A DNA stretch of 32,000 nucleotides, from NCBI GenBank assembly GCA_018302815.1, contig JAGVZE010000017.1:1783-33782 (forward strand), read 5' to 3'. The DNA comes from Candidatus Woesearchaeota archaeon (GTDB lineage Archaea > Nanobdellota > Nanobdellia > Woesearchaeales > ARS49). Every line of letters begins with the position of its first letter. The first letter of the stretch is position 1. The position numbers and the translations under genes are program-made. This document shows, one piece after another, positions 2,795 through 29,007 of this stretch. The notes beneath the pieces are model-generated. The model ran no database searches. It was given only the letters and a program-made list of their open reading frames with translations, and was not told the origin of the DNA.

Positions 2795-2845
2795 AATGCT
2801 CGGCTGGCAGCCGAGATGCCGGGGGTTCAAATCCCCCCCTGTCCA
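2772..2845 (+). tRNA. tRNA-Ala (anticodon GGC), no encoded CCA
   Basis: Manual cloverleaf: acceptor GGGCAGG/CCTGTCC with the G3:U70 alanine identity pair, D stem ATTC/GAAT, anticodon stem CTCGG/CCGAG with loop CTGGCAG, 5-nt variable loop, T arm GGGGG-TTCAAAT-CCCCC, discriminator A. Confidence 0.85.
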
Positions 2846-2888
2846 TGTGCTATCTACCAATGCGGCAAACTCAATAGGTGCTGTATTT

Positions 2889-3515
2889 TTGAATGAGAGT
2901 GACATTTTCAAAAGACTTCTTAATTTGCCACTTCAACCCACCGAAGCGATACTGGTCTTCACAGGATACGGTTTTTCTCTTTGCGATAAGGCGCACGAAC
3001 TTTACAAGGCAGGATATTCAGATAAGCTCTGCGTTTTTGGAGACAACAGCTATCCTTGGAAAGCGAACCCGAAAGCTGATTCGATAGATCACAAGAATTA
3101 TTTGCACACTCTTCCTGGCGTAAAAGAAGTATTCTGCAATTTAGTGCATACTGGAAACACAAAACAAGCATCAGAAACAGCATTGGAAAAAATGCAGGAT
3201 TCAGGGTGGAACAGCGCACTTCTAGTCACCTGCTGGTACCATATGCCAAGAGCGTATTCGACCTTCGTTAAAGCAATGCTACTGCGAGGAAAAGACCTAC
3301 ATATTGTTCCCGCGCCGTACGAGCCTTCAGTTTGGGCAGATACCGATCAGATACTTGAGATGAGCTGGACAGACGCTCTCAAACAAGAGAAAGAACGAAT
3401 CGAACGCTACCGCGCGCAAGCAGACGTCGCGACAAAAGAAGAGCTAAGCGCATATATTGAAATGCATTTCAACCAATCGACGTTCATCAGTCAACGATTC
3501 TTGAACACAAAATAA
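2889..3515 (+). CDS. DUF218 / YdcF-like protein
   Basis: ILVFTGYG ... GNTKQASE ... LLVTCWYHMPRA matches the DUF218 pattern. The track ORF start (2796) lies inside tRNA-Ala. The only in-frame starts after the tRNA are GTG 2847 and TTG 2889, so the start is uncertain. Confidence 0.65.
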   Translation: MNESDIFKRLLNLPLQPTEAILVFTGYGFSLCDKAHELYKAGYSDKLCVFGDNSYPWKANPKADSIDHKNYLHTLPGVKEVFCNLVHTGNTKQASETALEKMQDSGWNSALLVTCWYHMPRAYSTFVKAMLLRGKDLHIVPAPYEPSVWADTDQILEMSWTDALKQEKERIERYRAQADVATKEELSAYIEMHFNQSTFISQRFLNTK

Positions 3516-4683: not shown

Positions 4684-5559
4684 ATGGACAATATGGCGCT
4701 TGAAGAACACTTCCTTCAAGACTCAGCAGAGAAAAAAACAGCGCACATGCGATTTTACGATTTCTCAAAAGACACAGTGGTGCTAGGATACTCTCAGGCA
4801 ACCGATGCGGTGAAAAAATGGAGTTCTGATTTTCACGTTGTCCGCCGAGCGAGCGGCGGCTCCCACGTGCACGTCGGAAAAAACGTACTCGCATATTCAT
4901 TCATAGTTCCAAGAGACGGCTCATTCGTCAACCATCAAGACTTTCGGATATATTACGCAGACAAAGTCGCGCAAGCGCTTGAACAAGCAGGACTTTCAAA
5001 TATAACAACCGATCATCGGGCAAGCACCATAATGAAAGACGGCAAAGTAATCGCAAGCCACGCGGTCACATGGGGCGTCAAAAGCGCGCTTTTGCACGGC
5101 CTTATAATGATAGATCCGTACAATATGCAATCCATCCTAAATAGAATCAAACTCAACACAAGGATGATCGGCAACAAGACGTACCATGAGGCAGATGCAT
5201 TAGCGCACATCCCCACAGTCACTAAATCGTTTTCCGAATTAAAACCCCATGCGACGCCTGAACAAAAAACGCTCTTTTGCAAACAACTACTCACAAACAA
5301 CATACTTCACTCGGTGGCAAAAACCAATTTCAAATCAAGACTGCTAACTAATGAAGTCCTATCAAAAGCAGAGCTTCTCCAACGAACCAGATACGCGACT
5401 GAACGATGGGTGATGCAGCGTGACCCCACATTCACTCCTGAACAAATAGAAGAGATGCCAGGCGAAAAGCTAGATGGACCACTCAACAAAAACCAAGGAT
5501 ATTGCCTTTACATCCAAGTGCCTGATAAAGATTTTAAGAACATGACTGGGCCCGATTAG
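4684..5559 (+). CDS. Lipoate-protein ligase A-like (biotin/lipoate A/B ligase family)
   Basis: VVLGYSQ ... VVRRASGGSHVHVGKNVLAYSFIV and KDGKVIASHA resemble LplA core motifs. The ATG at 4684 is chosen because a weak TATA lies about 28 nt upstream. ATG 4642 is an alternative. Confidence 0.65.
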   Translation: MDNMALEEHFLQDSAEKKTAHMRFYDFSKDTVVLGYSQATDAVKKWSSDFHVVRRASGGSHVHVGKNVLAYSFIVPRDGSFVNHQDFRIYYADKVAQALEQAGLSNITTDHRASTIMKDGKVIASHAVTWGVKSALLHGLIMIDPYNMQSILNRIKLNTRMIGNKTYHEADALAHIPTVTKSFSELKPHATPEQKTLFCKQLLTNNILHSVAKTNFKSRLLTNEVLSKAELLQRTRYATERWVMQRDPTFTPEQIEEMPGEKLDGPLNKNQGYCLYIQVPDKDFKNMTGPD

Positions 5560-6251
5560 ACCCCAGGCAACGCGCCAAGCGCTTTTCCAATCAGGTAACC
5601 CGCTATAGCGGCAGTCATTCCCACAATCGCCATCTCGACACCTGATTTCAACGGCCGAACGCCAGTCATCTTGCCTTTAGCGGCACCTGAAACAAATAAA
5701 GTTAGCGTGGATATTATAAGAGTCAAAATAACAGCATCAGCTACGGGCAGCAAGACAAATGAAATAAGAGGAATGATGCTTCCCACAATCGCTGCAAGCC
5801 CAACTATAATCGCGTCTCTAACCGGGTGAGCGAACTCCTGCGGGTTAAGCCCAAGCTCATCACGCATCATCGTCTCAACCCAAATCTTCTTGTTGCTAGT
5901 GATTTTACGAACTATCTGATCGAGAAGCTTGCCGCTAAAACCTTTCCTTGCATAAATTTGACGAACTTCCTCACGCTCTTCCTTTGGAACAGCCTCAACC
6001 TCTTTTTGTTCAGTCTCAAGCTCTTTTTGATAATACTCTTTAGCAGCTTTACTGCTCGTGTACGCAACAGCAGCCATACTAATAGACTCTGCGAACGTTG
6101 CCGCAAGCCCCGAAATCATTATCATTTGCGTACTATGCGTAGCCTCGGCCACTGCAAGAACAATGCCGAGCACATTCACAAGACCATCCTGCCCGCCTAA
6201 AATAAGATCACGTATGACTGCAGAACCCTTACCGTGAACCTCTTTTCTCAT
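5556..6251 (-). CDS. VIT1/CCC1 family iron/manganese transporter
   Basis: GGQDGLVNVLGIVLAVAEA signature, a central charged loop, and C-terminal TM helices. TATA TTTTTTAAAG lies about 22 nt upstream. Confidence 0.85.
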   Translation of the reverse strand: MRKEVHGKGSAVIRDLILGGQDGLVNVLGIVLAVAEATHSTQMIMISGLAATFAESISMAAVAYTSSKAAKEYYQKELETEQKEVEAVPKEEREEVRQIYARKGFSGKLLDQIVRKITSNKKIWVETMMRDELGLNPQEFAHPVRDAIIVGLAAIVGSIIPLISFVLLPVADAVILTLIISTLTLFVSGAAKGKMTGVRPLKSGVEMAIVGMTAAIAGYLIGKALGALPGV

Positions 6252-6288: not shown

Positions 6289-8874
6289 TTACGGCCGTGG
6301 AAGACTCTTCGCCAAAGAAGGCTTGTAAAATCTTAGCAGCAAACTATTCGAGACAACGCTAACGCTCGAAAGCGACATCGCGATGCCTGCAAGCAATGGA
6401 TTAAGAAGAGTGCCTGTGAAAGGATAAATCGCACCAGCTGCCACAGGAATCAAGATAATATTGTACGCGAACGCCCAGAACAAATTCTGCTTTATTTTGC
6501 GCATGGTCTTTGCGCTCAATTCAATCGCGGTCACAACATCACGCACATCACTTTTCATCAACACGACATCACCAGATTCTATAGCAATGTCAGTTCCTGA
6601 CCCAATCGCAATGCCAACATCCGCTTGGCTAAGCGCAGGAGCGTCATTGACACCATCACCAACCATCGCGACCTTTTTGCCACGCTCCTGAAGCTGCTTT
6701 ACTCTTGAAGCTTTCTCACCCGGAAGAACGTTCGCCAGCACATCATCAATACCTGCCTCTTTAGCTACCGCCCTTGCCACGCGCTCATTATCGCCGGTAA
6801 TCAACATAACCTTCTTGCCAAGCCTGTGAAGCTCCTCAACTGTTTCCTTCGCGAAAGGCTTCAACTGGTCCGCTACCGCGATAATGCCAAGAAGCTGTTT
6901 TGAAGTCGCAAGATACACCACAGTCTTTCCCTGAAGCTCAAGGTCCTGCACTTTTTGTTCGATGCTTTCAACATCAATCTTTTCACCCGACATTAGCCTG
7001 CGATTTCCAAGCAACAAATTCTTGCCCTTGTAGCTAGCCTGCACGCCCTGGCCTGTGATAGACTTGAAATGAATCGCCTCAGGAATCGCTATTTTACGCG
7101 CCTTCGCAGCATTAAGAATAGCCTCAGCAAGAGGATGCTCGCTCTTGCGCTCAAGAATCGCCGCAAGCTGCAAAAGACCTTCCGCAGAAGACTTGCCCAC
7201 AGGGACAATATCGGTTACCTCTGGCTCTCCTTTAGTCAAAGTTCCTGTTTTATCGAATAAGACAACCTTTATGTCCCTTGTTTCCTGCAAACTCTTCGCG
7301 TTTTTGAACAAAATACCATTCTGCGCCCCCTTGCCGCTGCCAACCATCACCGCAGTCGGCGTTGCAAGCCCAAGCGCGCACGGACACGCAATTATAAGAA
7401 CCGCAACAAAACTCGTGAACGCAAGCGCCCAATCGCCAAACGTCCACCAAGAAACAAAACTCGCAACCGCTATCAAGATAACCGCGGGAACAAAATAATA
7501 CGAAACTTTGTCCGCAACTTCCTCGATTGGCGCCTTAGAACCCTGCGCTTCCTCAACAAGCCTCACTATTTGAGCAAGAGCCGTGTCTTTTCCAACCTTT
7601 GAAGCGCGCATATAGAATGAGCCAGTCTTGTTCACAGTTCCGCCGATAACAGCGCTTCCCTTCACCTTCTCAACAGGAAGACTCTCACCAGTAATCATGC
7701 TCTCATCAACCGAACTTAAACCATCAGTCACAACACCATCAGTTGGAATCCTCTTTCCCGGAGACACCAGCAGAATATCTCCAACTTGAACTTCATCAAG
7801 AGATATCTCTTGCGTGAACACTTCATCGCCGCGTTTGCCCGTAACTCTTAGCGCAGTCGTAGGCTGAAGGCTCAACAATTTACGAATAGCATCGCTCGCC
7901 TTACCCCTAGCTATAGCCTCAAGCAATTTGCCAAGCAAAATGAACGCCACGATAAGACCCGCGATCTCAAAATAAAGCATTTCCATCGTGTAGCCTTCTT
8001 TGCCAACCATCAACATCACGAACACAAACGCGCTGTACAAATACGCAGCTCCAGTACCAACCGCCACAAGACTATCCATATTCGGCACCCTGTTGATAAG
8101 AAGAGCGCGAAGACCTTTAGTGTAAAATTCAAAACCTGCAATGATAATTGGAGTTGCCAGCAACAATTGCAGCAAAGCGCTCGTTGTCATCGACAATTCA
8201 GGAAGCGGAAGCCCAGCCATGTGGCCCATCGCGAGATAAAGAAGAGGAACGCCAAAAACTGCCGCAATAGACACGCGCTTGCCCCAATGCGCAACCTCAG
8301 AATGCACCTTCGTGTCAGCCACGGTTGCGCCATAACCCGCATTCTTGACAGCAGCAATGAGGCTATCAACATTTCCTCCCTTGACTCTTGCTTTGGATGT
8401 CGCAAGATTAACCTTGACTTCTGAAACACCCTCAACTTTTCTGAGCGCGCCTTCCACAATCATCTGACAATGCGCGCTATCCATCCCTGAAATCTCAAGA
8501 GTGACAACACCAGACTCTAACTGCGTTTGCGCGTTTATCGTCTCATGAGACTCAGTCTTATAGCCTGACTTTTCTATCGCCTCGCGCAAAAGTTTCTCTG
8601 ACACAAGCTTTGGGTCATAATCAACAAACGCCTTTGATGCAGCAAAATTCACGCTGGCAGATTTCACACCCGCGATTTTTTTCAACGCAGTCTCAATCGT
8701 TCTTACGCAGTTAGCGCAGCGCATATTAGAAATGACAATGATAGCTTTGCTCACATCTTCAAATTTAGCCTTGCACTCCGCGCTGCAGAAATAGTAGGTC
8801 TGCGACCTGCCTTCAATCTTGAACTTCGCAGTTACCGGATTCACTTCCATGCCACACGAAGGGTCTTTAACCAT
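6289..8874 (-). CDS. copA: Copper-translocating P1B-type ATPase with N-terminal TRASH/YHS-like domain and two HMA domains
   Basis: DPSCGMEV...CSAEC (TRASH/YHS-like), HMA1 with CANC, HMA2 with a degenerate SAHC, TGES, CPC ([11 protein letters not shown]), [15 protein letters not shown]. Confidence 0.95.
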
Positions 8875-8896: not shown

Positions 8897-8904
8897 TATA
8901 TAAA
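8897..8904 (-). promoter_or_regulatory. TATA box for copA (leaderless spacing)
   Basis: Minus-strand TTTATATA centred about 26 nt upstream of the copA ATG at 8874. Confidence 0.5.
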
Positions 8905-8964: not shown

Positions 8965-10047
8965 TCAAGCAGTCCTGCTCAACTTTCTAAGATGCATGAA
9001 CGTTTGGATATGCTCAATTGTGCTCTTGCTCGCGCCAGCGGATTTGTTCTTATCCTCATACATCAAGTCATCAGCTCTCTTTGCGATAGCGTCGAACTCC
9101 TGCGCATACTGCGGTTCATTCCAGCCCCGCAACTCTTCAGGCAAGCGAGCATAAAATAATGAGTGCCCAACATTAATCCTGAATCGAATGAATTCATCTT
9201 CCGGTTCGAACACCTTGAACCCATCAGGTTTCAAAGCAGAAGGGTCATAAAAAGGATTCCGGATCCTGATAGCGTCAACTTTCTCTTTAATCTTATCTTC
9301 CATTGATTTTGCCGCATCTTCATTCGATAAGTAATGAGCGACAGTCACGAACTCCTCTCCGCCAGCGCGGTACACCGGGTCTTTATCCCGAATCGCGGAC
9401 TTAATCGCCTTACCAACTTCCTTTAAAACCAAATCCCCGAACGGATGGCCGAACGTGTCGTTTATGCGCTTGAACTTACGCATGTCCATAAAGAAAATCG
9501 CGGAATATTTCCCTTGCGCGTAATCCTGCGCCGCCTGTTTCACGTGAACATGCTTTTGAGCGACGTATTCGGCCTGCGAATAAACGCCTATCTCTTTACT
9601 GAACAATCCATCATATTTTGCGGTATCCTTCGCGCGCTGCAATTCGCGCCTATCAATCTTATGCCTTCGCGTCGCGGTACAGTGCTTTTCCTGGACTGTT
9701 CGCAATTGATACCTGAGCCCTGACTCGTCTTCACGAAGCAGCCTTTTTAGATCATCATACTTAATATTGCGTGCCGCAATAATCGGAACCGGAATCGCAA
9801 GAGTTTGCCCATCAATATAGTTATTCCAGAATTCGTCGTCTGAAGCAAATTCATTCTGACAAACGATGATTTTGCGTTCATTTTCAATAGAAACATACGT
9901 GTATAAGAACGGCCCCTTATCATCCACTCTAAACGGAAGAAAATCTTTTGAGCCTATTGTGTAACATAACGCTTCAAGCGAAGGCAAGTCAATCTTATGG
10001 CACTGCGCTTCTCCTTTCGGTTCCAATGTCCAGACTTCGAGACTCAC
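8965..10047 (-). CDS. GGDEF-domain protein (putative diguanylate cyclase) with an unrecognised 180-aa N-terminal domain
   Basis: FFMDMRKFKRINDTFGHPFGDLVLKEVG, RDKD-PVYRA-GGEEF (I-site RxxD five residues before an intact GGEEF; 9349-9390), KRADDLMYEDKN. GTG start. Confidence 0.85.
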   Translation of the reverse strand: MSLEVWTLEPKGEAQCHKIDLPSLEALCYTIGSKDFLPFRVDDKGPFLYTYVSIENERKIIVCQNEFASDDEFWNNYIDGQTLAIPVPIIAARNIKYDDLKRLLREDESGLRYQLRTVQEKHCTATRRHKIDRRELQRAKDTAKYDGLFSKEIGVYSQAEYVAQKHVHVKQAAQDYAQGKYSAIFFMDMRKFKRINDTFGHPFGDLVLKEVGKAIKSAIRDKDPVYRAGGEEFVTVAHYLSNEDAAKSMEDKIKEKVDAIRIRNPFYDPSALKPDGFKVFEPEDEFIRFRINVGHSLFYARLPEELRGWNEPQYAQEFDAIAKRADDLMYEDKNKSAGASKSTIEHIQTFMHLRKLSRTA

Positions 10048-10241
10048 TGGTTTATTTTCCCCTCAATTCTGGACCCAAGCCTATTAGTAACACTTGCAAA
10101 CGTATCCTTCTTATCACTATGCATCTCACTCACATGACTTTTTTCCTGAATAGGCACAAAAGTATATAAGCTTTATCACTCTATACTATTTGTCATCAAA
10201 AGACCCATAATTTATAAAGTTTTGAGCCTTTCTTTATAATC

Positions 10242-11165
10242 ATGTATATTGACGCACTCATATTCATACTCGGCTGCGCCGCGCTCGTCAAAGCATCAGA
10301 ATACGCTGTAGAATCCATCGCTCATATCGCAAGAGCGTTTCGTATGACTGAATTCGTCACCAGCTTCATATTGGTGGCACTAATATCCGCACTCCCTGAA
10401 ACATTCATCAGCGTATTTTCCGCGCTAGAAGGAGACCCAAGCCTTGGCCTTGGAACTTTGCTCGGAAGCAACATCGCGGACTTGACATTAATATTAGGAC
10501 TTGTCGCGCTAGCGGGTCATCCTATCAGGATACAGAGCCACATAATCCAAAAAGACCTATACTTCGCAGCATTGACAATGCTTCCCATTATCTTGGGATT
10601 AGATGGGTTCTTAACACGGCTCGATGCGGTAATATTGCTGGTAGCAGGAACTTCTTTCATTTTCATCCTGCTCGAAGAGAGCATGTATTTTAGGAAACCA
10701 TACAACGATGGAAACCATTTCTACAAACAACTCGCGATATTCTTCTGCGCAGTCATAGTGCTGTTAGTTAGCGCGAACTTCATAGTTTCAAGCGCGGAAT
10801 CCCTTGCGATAGGCCTTGGCATTCCAACAGTCATGATAGGACTATTCCTAATAGCCCTTGGCACGACCCTTCCTGAATTCATTTTCAGCCTTCATAGCAT
10901 CAAAAAAGGGCACGCAGAACTTGCCATCGGCGACATATTGGGAGTCGTAGTTGTCGATGCGACACTTATCATCGGCATCACAGCGCTGGTCATGCCAATC
11001 GCAATCAACACATTCTTACTCTCGATGATAGGAATGTTCACCGCTTTCGCAGTCGTGTTCGCACTGCTGTTCATGCGTTCAGATGGAGTCCTAACAAAGA
11101 ACGAAGGAATGGCGCTGGTCTTGTTTTACGTCGCGTTTGTTGTCGTACAAATGTTAGTTGCGTGA
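10242..11165 (+). CDS. CaCA family cation/Ca2+ exchanger (YrbG-like)
   Basis: Two alpha-repeats, ALPETFISVF...GSNIADLTLILG and GTTLPEFIFSL...GDILGVVVVDATLIIG. About 10 TM segments. Confidence 0.85.
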   Translation: MYIDALIFILGCAALVKASEYAVESIAHIARAFRMTEFVTSFILVALISALPETFISVFSALEGDPSLGLGTLLGSNIADLTLILGLVALAGHPIRIQSHIIQKDLYFAALTMLPIILGLDGFLTRLDAVILLVAGTSFIFILLEESMYFRKPYNDGNHFYKQLAIFFCAVIVLLVSANFIVSSAESLAIGLGIPTVMIGLFLIALGTTLPEFIFSLHSIKKGHAELAIGDILGVVVVDATLIIGITALVMPIAINTFLLSMIGMFTAFAVVFALLFMRSDGVLTKNEGMALVLFYVAFVVVQMLVA

Positions 11166-15514: not shown

Positions 15515-16039
15515 TCAGAATCTGAACCCAAAACCAAACAAAAACAAATGCGAATCAATGCCCCTGTTAGGACTATCTCTTGTTCCACCGTGCGAAATGT
15601 GCATATATCTATAGCCCAGCTGAAGAAATACGCCATCATCTTGAATCCTCGCGCCAAAACCGCCCTGGTCTAAAAAGTTGAAACCCGCGTGCCCCTGCTC
15701 TCTTGTTCGCATATCAAGATAACCAGGGCCAGCTCCAGCCTCCGCGTAAACGCTAACATTGCCAAACGGATACTCATATCTTCCCATCGGAGTCGCCCCG
15801 CGCATAGAACCGCGTTCATCGCCATGAAATTCATAATCAAACGCCTCCACCGATAAGTGGAGATTGCCATGATTTTCATCAAGTCCAATATACTCGTTGA
15901 CATCCTTGCCGATACGCACGCTGAAAGGAGTTATTTCCTGATCGTTGAACCTGCCATATCCTGTCGAGACTCCCATCTCTAAACCAGAACAACCAGCGAG
16001 CGAAACGGCCAACACGGAGCCTAGGAGTTTATTCAGCAC
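15515..16039 (-). CDS. PagL-like acyloxyacyl hydrolase beta-barrel with lipobox signal
   Basis: C-terminal LQLGYRYMHISHGGTRDSPNRGIDSHLFLFGFGFRF (H-x-S catalytic-type motif, aromatic C-terminus). Signal LNKLLGSVLAVSLAGC. The GTG at 16039 is chosen because TTTATATA is centred about 27 nt upstream. Confidence 0.6.
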   Translation of the reverse strand: MLNKLLGSVLAVSLAGCSGLEMGVSTGYGRFNDQEITPFSVRIGKDVNEYIGLDENHGNLHLSVEAFDYEFHGDERGSMRGATPMGRYEYPFGNVSVYAEAGAGPGYLDMRTREQGHAGFNFLDQGGFGARIQDDGVFLQLGYRYMHISHGGTRDSPNRGIDSHLFLFGFGFRF

Positions 16040-16148
16040 TAAAATTCTTACGCTTCCAGAAGTATATAAATCTGAAGACACATTTTTTTCGAACTTTACT
16101 TCACATGCGTCGCAACATTCATAAATGCGCACGCGCTTGACAACACAC

Positions 16149-17177
16149 ATGCTTTCAAAGCTCTCGCACACTTTGTGCGCACTTGTTCTATCCGGATGCG
16201 GAGCGTTAACTTACCACACACCACAAGACCCTATGTACCGCGGACCCACTCCGCTTGACCGTTCAATTGAGGAAAGATTCAGGTACAAAGACGACGATGG
16301 CATCGCGCCCATCACAACGTTAGTTCGAAGCGAGAACAGGCTGCTTTATACCCTTGAAACGAGTACGTTCTCTCATTATGATGAAGCTTCACAAAAAGAT
16401 AGGCAGGTCACGTTCGAACACTACAGAACACGCCTTCGCGAAAACGCGCCGCTTGTTCTTGTAGCGCCAATACTTGGCGGAAAATACGCGATAGAAAGAC
16501 CGCTATGCGAAACACTTGCCGAGAATGGAATCTCGGCTGTGTTAGTGCACAGGCCAAAACACATGCTAAGATTCGCAGAGTTTGATAATTTAGAAACTTT
16601 CCTGCGCTCAATAGTTTCAGATAGACGATGCGTGCTTGACGCGCTTGATTGCGAATACGACCAAATGGGAAGCATTGGAATCAGCATGGGCGCGATAACG
16701 AATGTGCCGCTGATAGCAGTTGAGCACAGACTGCAGTACAACATACTTGGAATGCCAGGGGCAAACATACCACTGATACTAATGACGTCAACCGAAGGAA
16801 GCTTGGAAGAATTCGTGGAAGAACACTCACGCGAACTATCCAAAAACGCGGATGAACTTTTAGAACACTTCAAAGAAGGATACGAATCAGACCCCGCGAA
16901 CCTTGCGCCATATATTGATGCCCGCAATACCAGAATGTTCCTTGCATTCTTCGATACAGTAGTTCCTTACGAACGCGGGCTTGAACTGCACGAAGCGCTA
17001 GGAAGGCCCGAACTCGACGTTTTGCCAACAGGCCATTATACCGCCGCGCTGTACTATTTTTGGATAAAAGATATGGCAGTAGAGTTCTTCCAAGAGCGAT
17101 TCGGCGTTGATTCTGATGCAGTAGAATCACGAAAAAACTCCATCCTTAGAAGACACGTCAGACGGCGGGTAAGCTGA
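16149..17177 (+). CDS. Alpha/beta-hydrolase fold lipoprotein
   Basis: Lipobox ALVLSGC and nucleophile elbow GISMG. ATG 16149 is preferred over the track start at 16125. Confidence 0.65.
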   Translation: MLSKLSHTLCALVLSGCGALTYHTPQDPMYRGPTPLDRSIEERFRYKDDDGIAPITTLVRSENRLLYTLETSTFSHYDEASQKDRQVTFEHYRTRLRENAPLVLVAPILGGKYAIERPLCETLAENGISAVLVHRPKHMLRFAEFDNLETFLRSIVSDRRCVLDALDCEYDQMGSIGISMGAITNVPLIAVEHRLQYNILGMPGANIPLILMTSTEGSLEEFVEEHSRELSKNADELLEHFKEGYESDPANLAPYIDARNTRMFLAFFDTVVPYERGLELHEALGRPELDVLPTGHYTAALYYFWIKDMAVEFFQERFGVDSDAVESRKNSILRRHVRRRVS

Positions 17178-23399: not shown

Positions 23400-24869
23400 C
23401 TACTTGGCAATCTTTTGAAGCGCCTCAAGAATCTCAACCATCCCTTCAGTATCCCGCCCGCAATACTTTAACAGGTCTTCTCTTGCCTTTTTCACGTCCT
23501 TAGTGTTTAGTGTGTTGTTTAGGAGTGCGATAAACGCACGGGTGGCCGCTCCGCCTTCTGCGATGCCGAGTCCTTCGTAACCTTTTCCCGTCATTGAGGG
23601 CAGGACTTCTTTGATGGAGTAGCTTCCGTGTTGGTTGGGGTGGTAGTACCAGAACTCTCTGAATGGCGTTGCGAGATCATCCATTCGGTCAATTATTTGA
23701 GTTATCCATTTAGCGTCTTTTGGGAACGCTTCTGCCAAATCGTGCAGGACGCGTTTCTCAAAACTGGCGTTGAACGCCAAAACGCTCCCCTCCTTTGGCA
23801 ATTGTTTCAAACCCTCAAGAAACTCCTTGCGCGGGTCACCTTTGCCATCCGCAAGCACTTCAATATGCTTAACCTTGCCATTCTCTATAACGTGCGCTGA
23901 GAACTGGAACGGCACTTGCTGATACGGCCAAGTTCCAATAAAGAGAGGGACACCAGGATTTATCGTTTCAAAGTCAAGGCACGTGAGCGGTTCCTTGAAC
24001 GCCTTGAGAAAGTTCTTTATCGCTTTGACTTCAATGTGCGGCTTGCCCTTCTCAACCGCATCAATTTGAATTTGCTGCTTAGAACCCAATTTTACGTCAG
24101 ACGGAATGTTCTCAAAGGTGGTAATTCCTTGGTTGATGAGCGGCCAAGCTTTCTTTCCAAAATAATACAGTTCGGCAAGTTCAATCCCTTCTAAATCAGG
24201 AGCGCATACTGGGCAGTCCTTAGGCTCTTTGCACTCAGAACCGTACTTTGGCTTGGGACACTTGCCCTTAACGATTTCAAGCATACCTTCAATATTACCC
24301 TCAACTTCTTCTGACTTTGTAACTGCATCTTCAGTCACGTCGTGCTTTGCCAAAAACTCCTTAAGCTCTAGCTTTCCATCAAAAACATACTCATTATTGA
24401 CAACCATCAAATAGACCTTATGCAGTTTAACCCCTGCGCCAGTTAAGCAATAATACTGGAAGCCAACATCCTCCAAGTGCTCATCCTTGACTTCTGTTGA
24501 ACTCTTGACTTCAATAAGCACCCACTCATCCTTACCGTGAGGAATCAACAGGTCAGCCTTGCAATACGCATGCTTATACGCGAACGTGGCCTCAAAAAGC
24601 GGCTTACGCTCCCTCAAAAGCTCCTGAGTCGTCTTTACCGATGAACCGTCACGTTTCACTTCAAAACCATCCGGATAAAGCTGCTTGGCTAAAGCTCCAA
24701 CCTCATGACCCGCATCAAACCTTGCCTGCGTAGCAGCATCAACAGGCGGAATCCTCTCAGGAGCGTTAATTTTAAGCCAAAGAAGCTTAGGACAGGAAAG
24801 ACCGGAGGTGTAGTTGGATTTGGAGAGGGTACTTTTGCTGTTCATATGGCGTCTCAAAATATAATTCAA
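23400..24869 (-). CDS. Cas4-like PD-(D/E)XK/4Fe-4S nuclease fused to a DEDD-type exonuclease-like domain (DUF2779-type architecture)
   Basis: N-terminus: SCPKLLWL, D...IEVK, QYY, and the Cys cluster C-x9-C-x5-C-x2-C. C-terminus: LDFET (DxE), FNASFEKRVL, YCGRDTEGM. The family name is from memory of Pfam DUF2779. Confidence 0.75.
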   Translation of the reverse strand: MNYILRRHMNSKSTLSKSNYTSGLSCPKLLWLKINAPERIPPVDAATQARFDAGHEVGALAKQLYPDGFEVKRDGSSVKTTQELLRERKPLFEATFAYKHAYCKADLLIPHGKDEWVLIEVKSSTEVKDEHLEDVGFQYYCLTGAGVKLHKVYLMVVNNEYVFDGKLELKEFLAKHDVTEDAVTKSEEVEGNIEGMLEIVKGKCPKPKYGSECKEPKDCPVCAPDLEGIELAELYYFGKKAWPLINQGITTFENIPSDVKLGSKQQIQIDAVEKGKPHIEVKAIKNFLKAFKEPLTCLDFETINPGVPLFIGTWPYQQVPFQFSAHVIENGKVKHIEVLADGKGDPRKEFLEGLKQLPKEGSVLAFNASFEKRVLHDLAEAFPKDAKWITQIIDRMDDLATPFREFWYYHPNQHGSYSIKEVLPSMTGKGYEGLGIAEGGAATRAFIALLNNTLNTKDVKKAREDLLKYCGRDTEGMVEILEALQKIAK

Positions 24870-24871
24870 AT

Positions 24872-25861
24872 TTATTTCCAGAGTTCACTTATTTTTTTAG
24901 CCTTAAGCAATTTGGATAATTTCGTAAATCTTGGAGATTGCGGCGCCATTCCTTTTACGCCTTTATCCAACTCTATCGGGCTGACTGTTTTCTTATTTTT
25001 CAAATACAAGATGAATTTTCCTGAATCTTTATACGTGTCGATTCGTTCTATTTCGGCATAATTTCTTATCGCTGCAACTGGCGATTTTTCATACATTGCT
25101 AGATATCTTATTTGTTCGCGAGCCCTTTGTGATAGTCTGATTGCCCACCATGCATTCTTTTCAACGTATGCATGTTTAAACCCGTCTTCAAATGCCGGAC
25201 ACACGATGGTATCGATCTCTTCAATATCTGACTCTTTAGACTTTGTTTTTTTACCGTCGAATTCCTGCAATTCTTCTCTCATGGGTTCGTAAAAGTATGC
25301 AATATCTGTCTTGTTTACGTATCGTTTCAGTGTGACAACGTCAGGTCGTTCTCTAAATACGTCAAGTGCGTCATTCAGATCGGTGGTGGCTTCATCAATT
25401 ACCAAAACAATCTTTATCTTATTTTCAGTTAGAAAAATCATTAACTCATCAATATTCTTAAAATCAGTATTTTTAAGATATTTCTCTATTTCTTTAGAAA
25501 GTGCAGTATTTGATTTAATAACTTCAAGCAATTTAGTTCTAATTTGATTCTGAGACGTTCTTGTGATAGTTGTGAATCTTACCAACTGCTCAGAAATATG
25601 GTTGTAAACATCATGTGTTGACAACTCATTCTCAACAAAATACAGTCGAGGCTGCTTATTACTCGTAAAATCAATCAAATACCCATCAGGCACGCCTTTG
25701 TTATATGATTCAGACTTTCCAAAGCGCTTCTTAATATCAATATAAACAACATCGTTTCCGAACAAATATTTGCAATTTTCAATAACTGCCTTCTCAAACA
25801 CTTCTTCAGTCTCAAAATCCAGTAAACTGTATTTCTTCCCGCTGATAAGAATGTTAGTCAT
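24872..25861 (-). CDS. PD-(D/E)XK-like nuclease-fold protein with uncharacterised C-terminal domain (329 aa)
   Basis: VPDGYLIDF...LYFVENELSTHD...ISEQLVRF (D / ExE / QxxxF pattern). The C-terminal YLAMYEKSPVAAIRNYAEIERID...GKFILYL is a recurring module I cannot name. Its stop lies 2 nt before the downstream ATG, so the genes are coupled. TATA lies about 28 nt upstream of the ATG. Confidence 0.6.
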   Translation of the reverse strand: MTNILISGKKYSLLDFETEEVFEKAVIENCKYLFGNDVVYIDIKKRFGKSESYNKGVPDGYLIDFTSNKQPRLYFVENELSTHDVYNHISEQLVRFTTITRTSQNQIRTKLLEVIKSNTALSKEIEKYLKNTDFKNIDELMIFLTENKIKIVLVIDEATTDLNDALDVFRERPDVVTLKRYVNKTDIAYFYEPMREELQEFDGKKTKSKESDIEEIDTIVCPAFEDGFKHAYVEKNAWWAIRLSQRAREQIRYLAMYEKSPVAAIRNYAEIERIDTYKDSGKFILYLKNKKTVSPIELDKGVKGMAPQSPRFTKLSKLLKAKKISELWK

Positions 25862-25999
25862 GCTTTATCACTGGGAAGAGAGGGATATAAATGTTTTGTA
25901 GTGTTGTGTGCAATGCTACTGGAGGGATATCCTAATTTAAAGAATGGCAGTATTCTAATAGTTAACTGATTTTAGGTAGAAATACATAAAAAGGACTGG

Positions 26000-28726
26000 G
26001 TGAACCATTCAGATATGGACATTGTTGCTGCGCGTCAAGCCCTTCAAAAACTGGTTGATGAGTATAATAAGAAATTCAAAGATGATAAAAGTCTTCTGAG
26101 TAATGAAAAACAGATTTGTGCGAGTTTAATCCTTCCGCTTGTTGAAGCAGTTCTTCATTGGAATACTAAAGATGTTTCAGAATTTAGACTTGAAGAACAA
26201 AGAGCAGGAAAACGTCCTGACTATCTGGTCTATTATCAAGGCATGACGCAATTCATTGTTGAAGCGAAAGCCGCTACGAAAGATTTGTTCGAAGATGAAG
26301 CAGCATTAACGCAAGCACTTGAGTATGGATATAATGCGGATAAAGAATTCGTTATTTTAACAAATTTTAGACAAATTGTAATTTTAGCCCCTAAAATACA
26401 GTATCGGAATGTGCATGAAGCAGCTATTGCACGAATCAATCTTTTAACTGTAAGTGATGATGACTTGAAAACGTTATTGTGTTTTGAACGAGAATACTGG
26501 ATTTCAGCAGCTAAAGATAATCTTCTTTATTCAAAACTCGTTCATCATAAAAAATCTGTTCCTGTTGATGATCGCCTTTTGGATGATATGAAAAATTGGC
26601 GAGAAATGTTACTCACCAATATTCAAAAGAAAAATCTTAAATTAAATTTTGATGATGAACAGGACTTTGCAGAAATTGAGAAAGAAGTTCAAAAAATAAT
26701 AGATAGGTTGGTTTTCATTTGTTGTTGTGAAGATAAAGGAATTCACCATGAGCCAACTTTAAAACGATTGCTTAATGAGAAACAGACTCGTTATTCGATG
26801 ACTCTGGGCTGGTTATTGGAATCTATTCATGGACTTTTCGCAAAATATCGAAAAGTGCCTGATAGCGATCTTTTTGATATGAGTCCGGCTGATAAATACA
26901 TAATCGAAGATACAAAACTAATGGACTTATTGACTGATCTACGCGAACCGAAAGGCCGACCAGCATACAATTTTGATGAAATCGATGAAGACATTCTTGG
27001 CAAAGTTTATGAAAATTTTATCGGGCATGTTCAGACTGGAAAGAAGCGCTTCAAGGAAAAAGAAGATATTGGAAAACGAAAGAAGGAGGGCATTTATTAC
27101 ACGCCAAAATACATTGTTGAATACATAGTGAATAACACTGTTCGTGACTATATTAAAGGAAAATCATTTGAAGAAATTCTGAAAGTGAAAATTCTTGATC
27201 CCGCGTGCGGGTCGGGAAGCTTTCTTTTAAGGGCGTTTAATGTACTAATTGAAGAAGCTGCAAAAGCACTAAAACGGCCCTTGGAATATGCGGAGAAAAA
27301 GGACTTGCTTCTAAATTGTATATACGGAGTCGATCTTGATGAACGAGCCGTTGAGATTACCAAGTTAACATTTTCATTGAAACTGGCGCAGATTTCAGAA
27401 GGACTTCCAGTACTTGCGGATAATATTCGACACGGAAATAGTTTGATTGATGATAAAGAAGTGGCGGGCGATTATCTGGCGTTTAAATGGGAAGATGAGT
27501 TCAAGGAAATAATGACTGGTGGAGGGTTTAACATCGTGATTGGGAATCCGCCGTACGGTGTTGCATTCAAACTGGAGGAGAAAAAATATTTTGAACTGCA
27601 TTATTCATATGTGAAATCAGTTTATGAAAGTTATCGTTTATTTTTAGAGCGAGTCGCCGCGTTGGTTAAAGAAGAATCACTAGTTGGGTTAATTATACCA
27701 AACACTTGGTTTTATTTGACAAATGCACAACACATTAGAGTAGAACTGTTATCAAAATTTTCAATACTTAAATTAATTAACCTTCCTCAGAGCGTTTTTG
27801 AAGATGCAACTGTTGACACATGCATTATAATTTTTACGAAAAAGATCATCAATAACAATCAAATAGGGGCATATTTCTTCCCCCATAAAGATAAAATTAA
27901 CAATCTGAGCAATCTAAATTATGTGGCAGTCAAGCAAAAAGATTTGTTAGATTCTCCTGGAAGCGTAATTAATCTGAAACTGAATGTGGATGATGTTCAA
28001 TTAATTGCCAAGATAAAAAAACAACCAGTAGTCCTAAATGATTACGTTGAAATCATCACTGGTATTAAACCGTATCAAGTGGGCAAGGGAAACCCCTCGC
28101 AAACAAAAAGAATAGTTGACGAAAAACCATTTACTGCACTTACCAAATTAGATCAGACATTCAAGCCTTGGCTCACTGGTAAATTCATTTATCGATATGG
28201 CGTTTCCAAAAATAAAGAATATATTAGTTACGGAAAATGGCTTGCAGAGCCAAAAACGCCAAATATTTTTGAACGTGATAGAATTGTTCTGCAGCAAATC
28301 AGAAATCCTTCCTTACCTAGAAGAATTGTGGCAACATTCATTCGGGGTGGAATATACACGAACAACGGAATCCATAATTTACTTCCAAAAGATAAAGTTA
28401 AGACTTTTTGGATTCTTGGTATCCTTAATTCCAAATTAATGAATTTTTATTTTTCTGCTCACTATAATGATGTAAATATAAAACCCTCCAATCTCTATAA
28501 TTTACCTTATCCGATATATTCTTCTGAGTCAAAAATAAGTGAATTAGTGGGCAGGATTTTGGAGTTGAACGAAAAATTGAAGAACATTAAAGAAAAAAAT
28601 ACCGATGAAAGTAACAAGATACAAAATGAAATTCAAAAAATAGATGGGATGATTGATAACGAAGTTTTCAAGCTGTTTAACCTTTCTGATACGGAAATCA
28701 ATATAGTTCAACAGAATAACGTTTAA
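26000..28726 (+). CDS. Type IIG restriction-modification enzyme (MmeI/Eco57I-like fusion of endonuclease, gamma-class N6-adenine methyltransferase and TRD)
   Basis: N-terminal nuclease RPDYLVY...FIVEAK, motif I ILDPACGSGSFLL, motif IV VIGNPPYG, and a long C-terminal specificity region. GTG 26000 or ATG 26015. Confidence 0.9.
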   Translation: MNHSDMDIVAARQALQKLVDEYNKKFKDDKSLLSNEKQICASLILPLVEAVLHWNTKDVSEFRLEEQRAGKRPDYLVYYQGMTQFIVEAKAATKDLFEDEAALTQALEYGYNADKEFVILTNFRQIVILAPKIQYRNVHEAAIARINLLTVSDDDLKTLLCFEREYWISAAKDNLLYSKLVHHKKSVPVDDRLLDDMKNWREMLLTNIQKKNLKLNFDDEQDFAEIEKEVQKIIDRLVFICCCEDKGIHHEPTLKRLLNEKQTRYSMTLGWLLESIHGLFAKYRKVPDSDLFDMSPADKYIIEDTKLMDLLTDLREPKGRPAYNFDEIDEDILGKVYENFIGHVQTGKKRFKEKEDIGKRKKEGIYYTPKYIVEYIVNNTVRDYIKGKSFEEILKVKILDPACGSGSFLLRAFNVLIEEAAKALKRPLEYAEKKDLLLNCIYGVDLDERAVEITKLTFSLKLAQISEGLPVLADNIRHGNSLIDDKEVAGDYLAFKWEDEFKEIMTGGGFNIVIGNPPYGVAFKLEEKKYFELHYSYVKSVYESYRLFLERVAALVKEESLVGLIIPNTWFYLTNAQHIRVELLSKFSILKLINLPQSVFEDATVDTCIIIFTKKIINNNQIGAYFFPHKDKINNLSNLNYVAVKQKDLLDSPGSVINLKLNVDDVQLIAKIKKQPVVLNDYVEIITGIKPYQVGKGNPSQTKRIVDEKPFTALTKLDQTFKPWLTGKFIYRYGVSKNKEYISYGKWLAEPKTPNIFERDRIVLQQIRNPSLPRRIVATFIRGGIYTNNGIHNLLPKDKVKTFWILGILNSKLMNFYFSAHYNDVNIKPSNLYNLPYPIYSSESKISELVGRILELNEKLKNIKEKNTDESNKIQNEIQKIDGMIDNEVFKLFNLSDTEINIVQQNNV

Positions 28727-29007
28727 TAATTATTCAGTGTGATTTTCTCATTATTTACTTTCCAAGTTGGATCAAATGATGTTAAGTCGATTTTCGTTTG
28801 ATAACATTCCGCTGTTTTTGAACTAAAATCAACAATAATGCTACCTGATTTGAAATTGTCCGACATTTCAACTGGTCCCGCGAGACGATGGATGCGGTCA
28901 AGTTCGCTTCGGCTAAGTCGATCTCTTAAGAGATTCTTAACTACATAAACTGGCACTCTTAGAACCTTGTAGCTAGTCCCCTCTTTTATGAACAATTGGA
29001 TGTCCAT
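28723..29007 (-). CDS. Hypothetical protein (94 aa)
   Basis: ORF convergent with the RM gene, with a 4-nt overlap. No motif. Confidence 0.45.
   Translation of the reverse strand: MDIQLFIKEGTSYKVLRVPVYVVKNLLRDRLSRSELDRIHRLAGPVEMSDNFKSGSIIVDFSSKTAECYQTKIDLTSFDPTWKVNNEKITLNNY

Follow-up and report, generated by a model that had tools for sequence, protein, structure and literature searches.

A predicted stalk-linked diguanylate cyclase with an orphan N-terminal domain beside copA in a Woesearchaeota genome

The first experimental paper on archaeal GGDEF proteins is that of Sidorov et al. (Mol Microbiol, Sept 2026; PMC13725321), which treats proteins of archaeal isolates together with those of DPANN and class II metagenome-assembled genomes (MAGs), namely M. 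arvoryzae GGDEF_MRE50 and 20 proteins from DPANN/class II MAGs (e.g. KHO53289.1 and KYK22704.1). In reporter assays with Salmonella and E. coli, archaeal and DPANN GGDEF proteins increased the level of cyclic di-GMP (c-di-GMP); phosphodiesterases, receptors, copy number and origin were left open in that paper. Here we describe a 360-amino-acid (360-aa) GGDEF protein encoded in a stretch of 32,000 nucleotides (hereafter the window) from a Candidatus Woesearchaeota archaeon (assembly GCA_018302815.1, contig JAGVZE010000017.1, positions 1,783 to 33,782). We consider it fairly probable that this protein works as a diguanylate cyclase that dimerises through a stalk, is regulated at its I-site and carries an orphan input domain. 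An earlier reading of the window from its sequence only (the sequence-only reading) had held that c-di-GMP signalling is undescribed in archaea, a statement overtaken by the cyclase activity reported for archaeal and DPANN GGDEF proteins in PMC13725321; the archaeal GGDEF headline is thus already known, and this gene adds another example to it.

The gene and its two signature sites lie in the window as follows.
8965..10047, (-) strand: GGDEF protein gene, 360 aa, GTG start, TGA stop at 8965-8967 (from the list of open reading frames, ORFs).
9349..9363, (-) strand: A-site GGEEF, residues 229-233, read from the sequence, with G229, G230 and E232 as invariant columns.
9379..9390, (-) strand: I-site RDKD, residues 220-223, followed by five residues (PVYRA) and then GGEEF.

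The 360-aa protein matches the Pfam GGDEF model (PF00990) with 82.9 bits (E 2.7e-23, cut-off 23.8) and the NCBIfam diguanylate cyclase domain TIGR00254 with 76.7 bits (cut-off 37.4), and all 46 of its 46 solved relatives by sequence are GGDEF proteins. The core motif reads D188-M-R-K-F-K193-R-I-N196-D-T-F-G-H-P-F-G-D205, an Arg precedes the A-site (R227-A-G229-G-E-E-F233), and the C-terminal motif reads K-R-A-D326-D-L-M-Y330-E-D-K333. In a 34-sequence alignment the listed catalytic and I-site motif positions, D188, N196 and D205 among them, are invariant columns, and R220 and D223 are invariant in 5/5 positional orthologs. These matches, together with the predicted fold and an RxxD placed exactly five residues before GGEEF, bear out the sequence-only reading of a GGDEF protein with intact A-site and I-site. 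Its argument that the Asp of GHPFGD favors GTP over the Hypr/cGAMP variant also stands: the guanine-specificity position is Asp (D205) rather than Ser, and the Hypr signature (GD to GS) is absent. From knowledge of the family, we take the PleD equivalents to be D327 for the metal-binding Asp and N335 and D344 for the guanine readers. The claim of a motif-by-motif match is right if limited to the catalytic core; the domain as a whole carries insertions in its C-terminal half and has lost the wide turn. Indeed, the Pfam GGDEF alignment spans only profile positions 20-111 of 161, because two insertions come after beta-4. Of the C-terminal K-x-x-G-R (PleD K442 and R446), the Lys is kept as K333 and the Arg position reads K-N-K-S-A (KNKSAG); K335 might stand in for the absent Arg.

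Structural modeling divides the protein into three parts.
9028..9612, (-) strand: GGDEF catalytic domain, residues 146-340, with insertions at roughly 264-288 and 298-312 (AlphaFold2, Foldseek).
9613..9747, (-) strand: helical stalk, residues about 101-145, modeled as a single long helix over 111-144.
9748..10047, (-) strand: orphan N-terminal domain, residues 1 to about 100, predicted mixed alpha/beta.

The AlphaFold2 predicted local distance difference test score (pLDDT) exceeds 90 over residues about 145-340. The top 50 Foldseek matches in the PDB are all GGDEF proteins (SiaD 7e6g, E 3.6e-12), with a TM-score of about 0.8 to the stand-alone GGDEF domains of DosC, TM1788 and WspR. The model thus has the GGDEF fold, whose beta-alpha-alpha-beta-beta-alpha-beta core is akin to that of class III cyclases. 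The best structural matches are cyclases that combine a stalk with a GGDEF domain, namely SiaD (7e6g), GCN4-WspR (3i5c) and DgcB (6ttr), and in the model the stalk probably forms a coiled coil for dimerisation; its TRR[YFH] motif is conserved, with TRR invariant among orthologs. Insertion one (roughly 264-288) is common to the ortholog from genome G011; we call the two insertions lineage-specific. The N-terminal region had been described as a 180-aa domain matching nothing recognizable; the lack of matches holds, and the single domain resolves into one of ~100 aa followed by the ~45-aa helical stalk. No Pfam or PDB match to the N-domain was found, a 6-sequence profile included. A phmmer search with the N-terminal 160 residues against 1.84 billion representatives returned as relatives only the full-length protein P0002 and a stand-alone 162-aa protein, P0042, two profile word-index searches added no further N-domain relatives, and a conserved Cys or His pattern, looked for in the N-domain, was not found. 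The structure prediction proposed for this domain was run twice, on the 360-aa protein and then on full-length P0002 with P0042 added; the stalk helix was modeled, and the N-domain remained below pLDDT 50 both times, so that a fold search on it is not meaningful. We presume the N-domain to be a sensor or partner-binding module.

We picture the gene product as a soluble diguanylate cyclase joined to a helical stalk, in an archaeon of DPANN type with a small genome. Two subunits would pair via the helical stalk (residues about 101-145), and each GGDEF domain would bind GTP-Mg, with D188 and E231/E232 holding the metal and N196 and D205 the guanine base, while K193, R227 and K333 would contact the phosphates and the transition state. 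Condensation of both GTPs would yield c-di-GMP, which could then bind the RDKD I-site (R220-D223) and switch the enzyme off, and the ~100-aa N-domain may act as the input module for a ligand or partner protein. A 1-base deletion has detached the conserved first 26 residues; translation would restart at GTG, and degradation of c-di-GMP would fall to a single HD-GYP-like protein encoded elsewhere in the genome.

A search of 5.8 billion proteins returned P0002 as the one full-length relative (69% identity); other matches cover the catalytic core only, and the closest match from outside the host's taxonomic family does not exceed 55% identity (the top-ranked one has 46%) and spans about a quarter of the protein at best. 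Most family genomes carry copA and an Na/Ca exchanger gene back to back. In G346 and G337 (one genus) and in G011 (another genus), a 351-366-aa GGDEF gene sits exactly between exchanger and copA, and the P0002 contig has the order GGDEF, one gene, copA; full-length subfamily members are always placed between exchanger and copA. The positional orthologs align end to end with the 360-aa protein at 19-25% identity, compared with 59-73% for their flanking genes. A five-sequence profile found full-length members in 4/77 family genomes and no new member in a metagenome protein collection, and the subfamily is absent from most family genomes, including that of G022, a congener of G346 and G337. All subfamily members retain RxxD and GG[DE]EF. 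Against P0002, nonsynonymous divergence (dN) is 0.22 with synonymous divergence (dS) saturated (> 2), and dN is 0.14 in the N-domain; since dN is far below dS, the 360-aa protein is under purifying selection. Judged by these comparisons, this is a tiny, fast-evolving subfamily of about six known members that occupies a fixed slot in a few genera of one family. The G011 ortholog (L142:5456-6538, (-) strand) has FG for FK, NK for ND and GS for GD, with RxxD and GGDEF kept. The Ser of this GS occupies the Hypr (cGAMP) signature position.

In three relatives a further gene separates the cyclase gene from copA.
L126:1447-2139, L140:5354-6079 and L141:4555-5340: intervening 230-260-aa gene, between the GGDEF gene and copA.

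Its product matches nothing in Pfam or the PDB. A motif in it (R-[KD]-T-D, then 5 residues, then [FG][GD][AK]VQ) aligns with RxxD-x5-GGEEF, and the comparison with GGDEF gives an hhalign probability of 16% (E 0.0016), a faint resemblance by which the product may perhaps be a degenerate GGDEF-type I-site protein.

Two features lie at the 5' end of the gene.
10044..10124, (-) strand: 26-codon upstream ORF (uORF; MHSDKKDTFASVTNRLGSRIEGKINQ, then stop), the former N-terminus, whose TGA overlaps the GTG start (GTGA).
10163..10173, (-) strand: TATA-like box (AGCTTATATA), about 38 nt 5' of the ancestral ATG at 10124.

Relative to the ortholog, a 1-base deletion in the GGGGAAAA run splits the uORF from the main ORF; in the alignment, ortholog contig L126 has ATG..NRLESRIE.. 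in frame with the GGDEF ORF, and the 'NRLE' helix (..NRLE..VE..) begins all orthologs. Independent ENA and Logan assemblies show this deletion as well, and it is therefore real rather than an assembly error. The identical 360-aa protein was independently assembled in ENA, JGI and Logan data, with the ORF identical across several samples, and JGI gene callers place its start at GTG or at a TTG close by. The GAGG motif found 11-13 nt 5' of the GTG, together with the GTGA stop-start overlap, makes a restart at this codon plausible; to judge from these signals, the 360-aa protein is probably the product of re-initiation at this GTG. A programmed -1 frameshift at GGGGAAAA was also considered and is unlikely, as re-pairing in the A-site would be of AAA with GAA, which does not make a canonical slippery heptamer. 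The position of the TATA-like box is kept as AAAGTTTAAAAA in L126, and AGCTTATATA is likely the promoter of the GGDEF gene.

As the sequence-only reading had stated, the window holds no EAL, HD-GYP or PilZ gene. The genome-wide partner search that it proposed recovered one candidate on another contig of the host assembly (G000).
C24:211390-212079, (-) strand: HD-GYP-like protein, 225 aa (locus L007:1216-1893; HD_5 33.8 bits), the only one in G000.

This protein has HDLGK, HHE and DIYDALSSRRAYK, with all metal ligands kept and NPYP replacing GYP, and its closest solved relatives are the HD-GYP phosphodiesterases V-cGAP3, PmGH and PA4781 (5z7c, 4mcw and 4r8z). We regard it as a candidate c-di-GMP or cGAMP phosphodiesterase. 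Its gene overlaps by 4 nt a 224-aa gene without known domain. Across the family, HD_5 occurs in 3/24 genomes, EAL in 0/24 and PilZ in 1/24; because EAL, HD-GYP and PilZ are mostly absent, turnover and reception in this family must use unknown parts.

GGDEF genes themselves are frequent in this lineage, contrary to the sequence-only view that they are extremely rare in archaea. They occur in 24/24 and 28/28 sampled family genomes (1-6 copies each), in 10/16 other families of the order, closed one-contig genomes included, and in 183/401 high-quality genomes sampled across the phylum. G000 carries four GGDEF genes in 1.55 Mb, and the three other paralogs score higher than the window gene (99-137 bits).
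C26:49220-50566, (+) strand: canonical GGDEF paralog (locus L001; 137 bits, full profile, GGEEF, no RxxD).

This C26 paralog has full-length orthologs, 32-38% identical, in every sampled genus of the family, and is convergent with a YGR210-type Obg-like GTPase gene conserved at 62-66%. In the tree it forms a clean clade of its own, the signature of vertical inheritance, and the window protein falls outside that clade; from its sequence relationships, the C26 paralog seems to be the cyclase that the family has inherited vertically as part of its core. A third paralog (C7:41345-42868, (-) strand, locus L003) combines a long coiled-coil N-terminus with GGEEI, RSTD and GV replacing GH, and may be a GGDEF protein of degenerate or receptor type.

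The host assembly (1.55 Mb, 26 contigs) is 100% complete with 0.38% contamination, and its 16S gene scores 1424 bits with the archaeal model and 1093 bits with the bacterial model, confirming the archaeal look of the genome. The window lies on a 46-kb contig (C18) whose tetranucleotide correlation with the rest of the genome is 0.984, and the GGDEF gene has a GC content of 0.457 compared with 0.45 for the genome. GC content alone was used for the gene, since a codon-usage transfer score proved non-discriminating (it rated a low-GC restriction-modification gene 'typical'). The same contig also carries an archaeal marker outside the window.
C18:40599-42098, (+) strand: archaeal AMP phosphorylase (TIGR03327, 567 bits, above cut-off).

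AMP phosphorylase belongs to the AMP/RuBisCO nucleotide-salvage route typical of DPANN genomes. Around copA, the family orthologs of CopA, VIT1, the Na/Ca exchanger and a beta-propeller protein all occur in the same order, and this synteny is the strongest evidence that the contig is native. The sequence-only reading had named a bacterial or chimeric contig as what would refute it; synteny, tetranucleotide composition and the archaeal AMP phosphorylase contradict such an origin. The phylogeny suggested to look for a recent bacterial transfer was run and gave no sign of a recent donor: the 360-aa protein and P0002 share a long isolated branch (stem 1.5 substitutions per site), the placement of which is unresolved (SH-aLRT 80-84) in a comparison set picked by similarity to the query, and no donor can be named. 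We conclude that the gene is native and was not recently acquired from bacteria; the phylum may have received it by a transfer in the distant past.

Several observations weigh against a functional, I-site-regulated cyclase. Within the protein, PleD R446 has no clear equivalent, and the wide turn DxLTGLxNRR is cut to D146-x-L148 (DGLFSKEIGVYSQ), although G346 and G337 retain it as DDNTELPNRR (D-x-x-T-x-L-P-N-R-R). This wide turn is conserved but is no catalytic requirement. At the locus, the frameshift detaches the conserved N-terminal helix, and the 230-260-aa gene found 3' of the cyclase in three relatives is absent. Searches of the G000 genome found no EAL domain, no PilZ domain and no c-di-GMP-I/II riboswitch (RF01051, RF01786; other receptor classes were not searched). 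Finally, PMC13725321 states that c-di-GMP is so far undetected in any archaeal cell. The lost turn and Arg, together with the insertions in the C-terminal half, would suit a catalytically weak or dead GGDEF protein that acts as a scaffold, or as an RxxD I-site c-di-GMP sensor reading the output of the three canonical, better-scoring paralogs. That RxxD is the most strictly conserved feature of the fast-evolving orthologs, and that catalysis-independent phenotypes exist for some archaeal GGDEF proteins (PMC13725321), is consistent with such a role. Degenerate receptor-type GGDEF domains normally lose GGDEF, however, whereas all known catalysis-essential residues are kept in the 360-aa protein, P0002, G346 and G337, and we regard a weak or dead enzyme as a credible but unlikely explanation. 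We further doubt, rather strongly, that the gene is in early decay, a leftover with its N-terminus cut off, from a module already deprived of its partner gene by deletion. The real frameshift that splits off the NRLE helix in all three assemblies, the missing counterpart of the L126, L140 and L141 gene and the patchy occurrence of the subfamily (missing even from G022) speak for decay, but the remaining 360 codons are open, selection extends to the N-domain, the GTGA overlap and upstream GAGG permit re-initiation, and the ORF does not vary between samples.

A different product, whether 3'3'-cGAMP or c-di-AMP (Hypr-type) or a linear dinucleotide, seems very unlikely. The best solved relative of the C24 HD-GYP-like protein is the cGAMP-specific phosphodiesterase 5z7c, and the G011 positional ortholog has GS instead of GD; against this, the window protein has the GTP-reading pair D205 and N196, and the Hypr Ser occurs in 0/20 archaeal proteins of PMC13725321. 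Bacterial contamination, a chimeric contig or recent bacterial transfer is scarcely credible. GGDEF is a typically bacterial domain, a PagL/outer-membrane-protein-like ORF lies 5.5 kb from the gene, and CopA relatives outside the family include those of CPR and Omnitrophota bacteria. However, the contamination or chimera reading is rejected on the family synteny of the flanking genes (59-73% identical), and the matching composition, the low contamination estimate, the limited identity and extent of all matches outside the family and the long isolated branch likewise tell against it. The stalk-dimerised, I-site-regulated diguanylate cyclase is thus the reading with which we continue.

The neighborhood of the gene comprises the following features.
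6289..8874, (-) strand: CopA-type P1B ATPase (YHS, 2x HMA, E1-E2 ATPase, HAD; Pfam), the downstream neighbor.
5556..6251, (-) strand: VIT1-family iron/manganese transporter (Pfam 208.9 bits; syntenic orthologs 72-73% identical).
10242..11165, (+) strand: Na/Ca exchanger family protein (Pfam, synteny), the divergent upstream neighbor, which abuts copA in most family genomes.
8897..8904, (-) strand: TTTATATA box, 22 nt 5' of the copA ATG, within the 90-bp gap after the GGDEF stop.

The gene indeed lies directly upstream of, and co-oriented with, copA and VIT1, as first noted. CopA orthologs are 59-70% identical across the family, with many of the nearest named CopA loci coming from Woesearchaeota or Nanoarchaeota MAGs, and exchanger orthologs are 54-66% identical in flanking loci (63-66% in loci with a positional ortholog). 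The TTTATATA box is spaced as expected for archaeal promoters that yield leaderless mRNAs, so that co-transcription of copA with the GGDEF gene is not required; by the archaeal promoter consensus, copA probably has its own promoter. Among CopA loci from other lineages, a GGDEF gene lies within 4 kb in 1/80, which rules out a general GGDEF-copA linkage. A functional tie to copA is therefore not supported, given its own TATA box and the 1/80 loci, and the adjacency is conserved within the subfamily only. Nevertheless, the conserved address hints at a connection with the handling of metals or cations. We consider it decidedly unlikely that the cyclase, in relatives together with the adjacent 230-260-aa protein, forms a rapidly evolving c-di-GMP module wired to metal homeostasis, in which that protein could be a degenerate GGDEF-type I-site receptor; if true, this would be the first concrete c-di-GMP output pathway in Archaea.

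Other parts of the window hold several features of separate interest. A 218-aa ORF at 15515-16171 ((-) strand) matches PagL lipid A deacylase (73.8 bits) and an outer-membrane beta-barrel model (37.9 bits), which is odd for an archaeon, as archaea are without outer membrane or lipid A. The region 25000-29000 forms a low-GC island (GC 0.34-0.36 compared with 0.45) with an Eco57I/MmeI-type fused restriction-modification gene (26000-28726), and a DUF2779/Cas4-like gene (23400-24869) adjoins its low-coordinate edge; the island is probably a mobile defence island. A predicted tRNA-Ala(GGC) at 2772-2845 ((+) strand) overlaps two ORFs, one for a LAGLIDADG endonuclease (1919-2794) at its end and one with DUF218 (2796-3515) at its start, which reflects either miscalled ORF ends or a spurious tRNA call.

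Whether and how archaea use c-di-GMP is a live question, to whose headline this locus adds little. What it does offer is a specific, testable hypothesis, arising from the subfamily's conserved address by metal transporters and its uncharacterised input domain. Compared with solved cyclases, the 360-aa protein resembles SiaD (7e6g), Caulobacter DgcB (6ttr) and GCN4-WspR (3i5c) in having a long helix that runs straight into the GGDEF domain and an RxxD I-site; unlike them (about 20% identity), it lacks the DxLTGLxNRR wide turn and has two post-beta-4 insertions, an extra C-terminal helix and an unrelated N-domain. With PleD and WspR (1w25, 2v0n and 3bre) it shares the catalytic Asp/Glu, the Asn/Asp guanine readers, the Lys, the Arg before GG and an RxxD spaced five residues from GGEEF, but it has neither a receiver domain nor a clear equivalent of PleD R446. 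Within its own genome, the C26 paralog likewise carries GGEEF, yet is canonical and without RxxD. The proteins of PMC13725321 are similar in their archaeal hosts, conserved GG(D/E)EF, signature residues and absence of the Hypr serine, and some also have short or undefined N-terminal regions and structural models that match solved cyclases. None of the architectures described there (GAF, REC, PAS, PocR, 7TM, GGDEF only) equals the N-domain of the 360-aa protein. Copy number differs as well: GGDEF genes are near-universal in this DPANN family (28/28 genomes), reach nearly half of the sampled phylum and are often multicopy, with four in the 1.55 Mb of G000, contradicting a rare, single-copy picture. 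For this lineage, the preliminary statements of PMC13725321 that such genes are 'only occasionally found' and 'not in multiple copies per chromosome' are hereby corrected.

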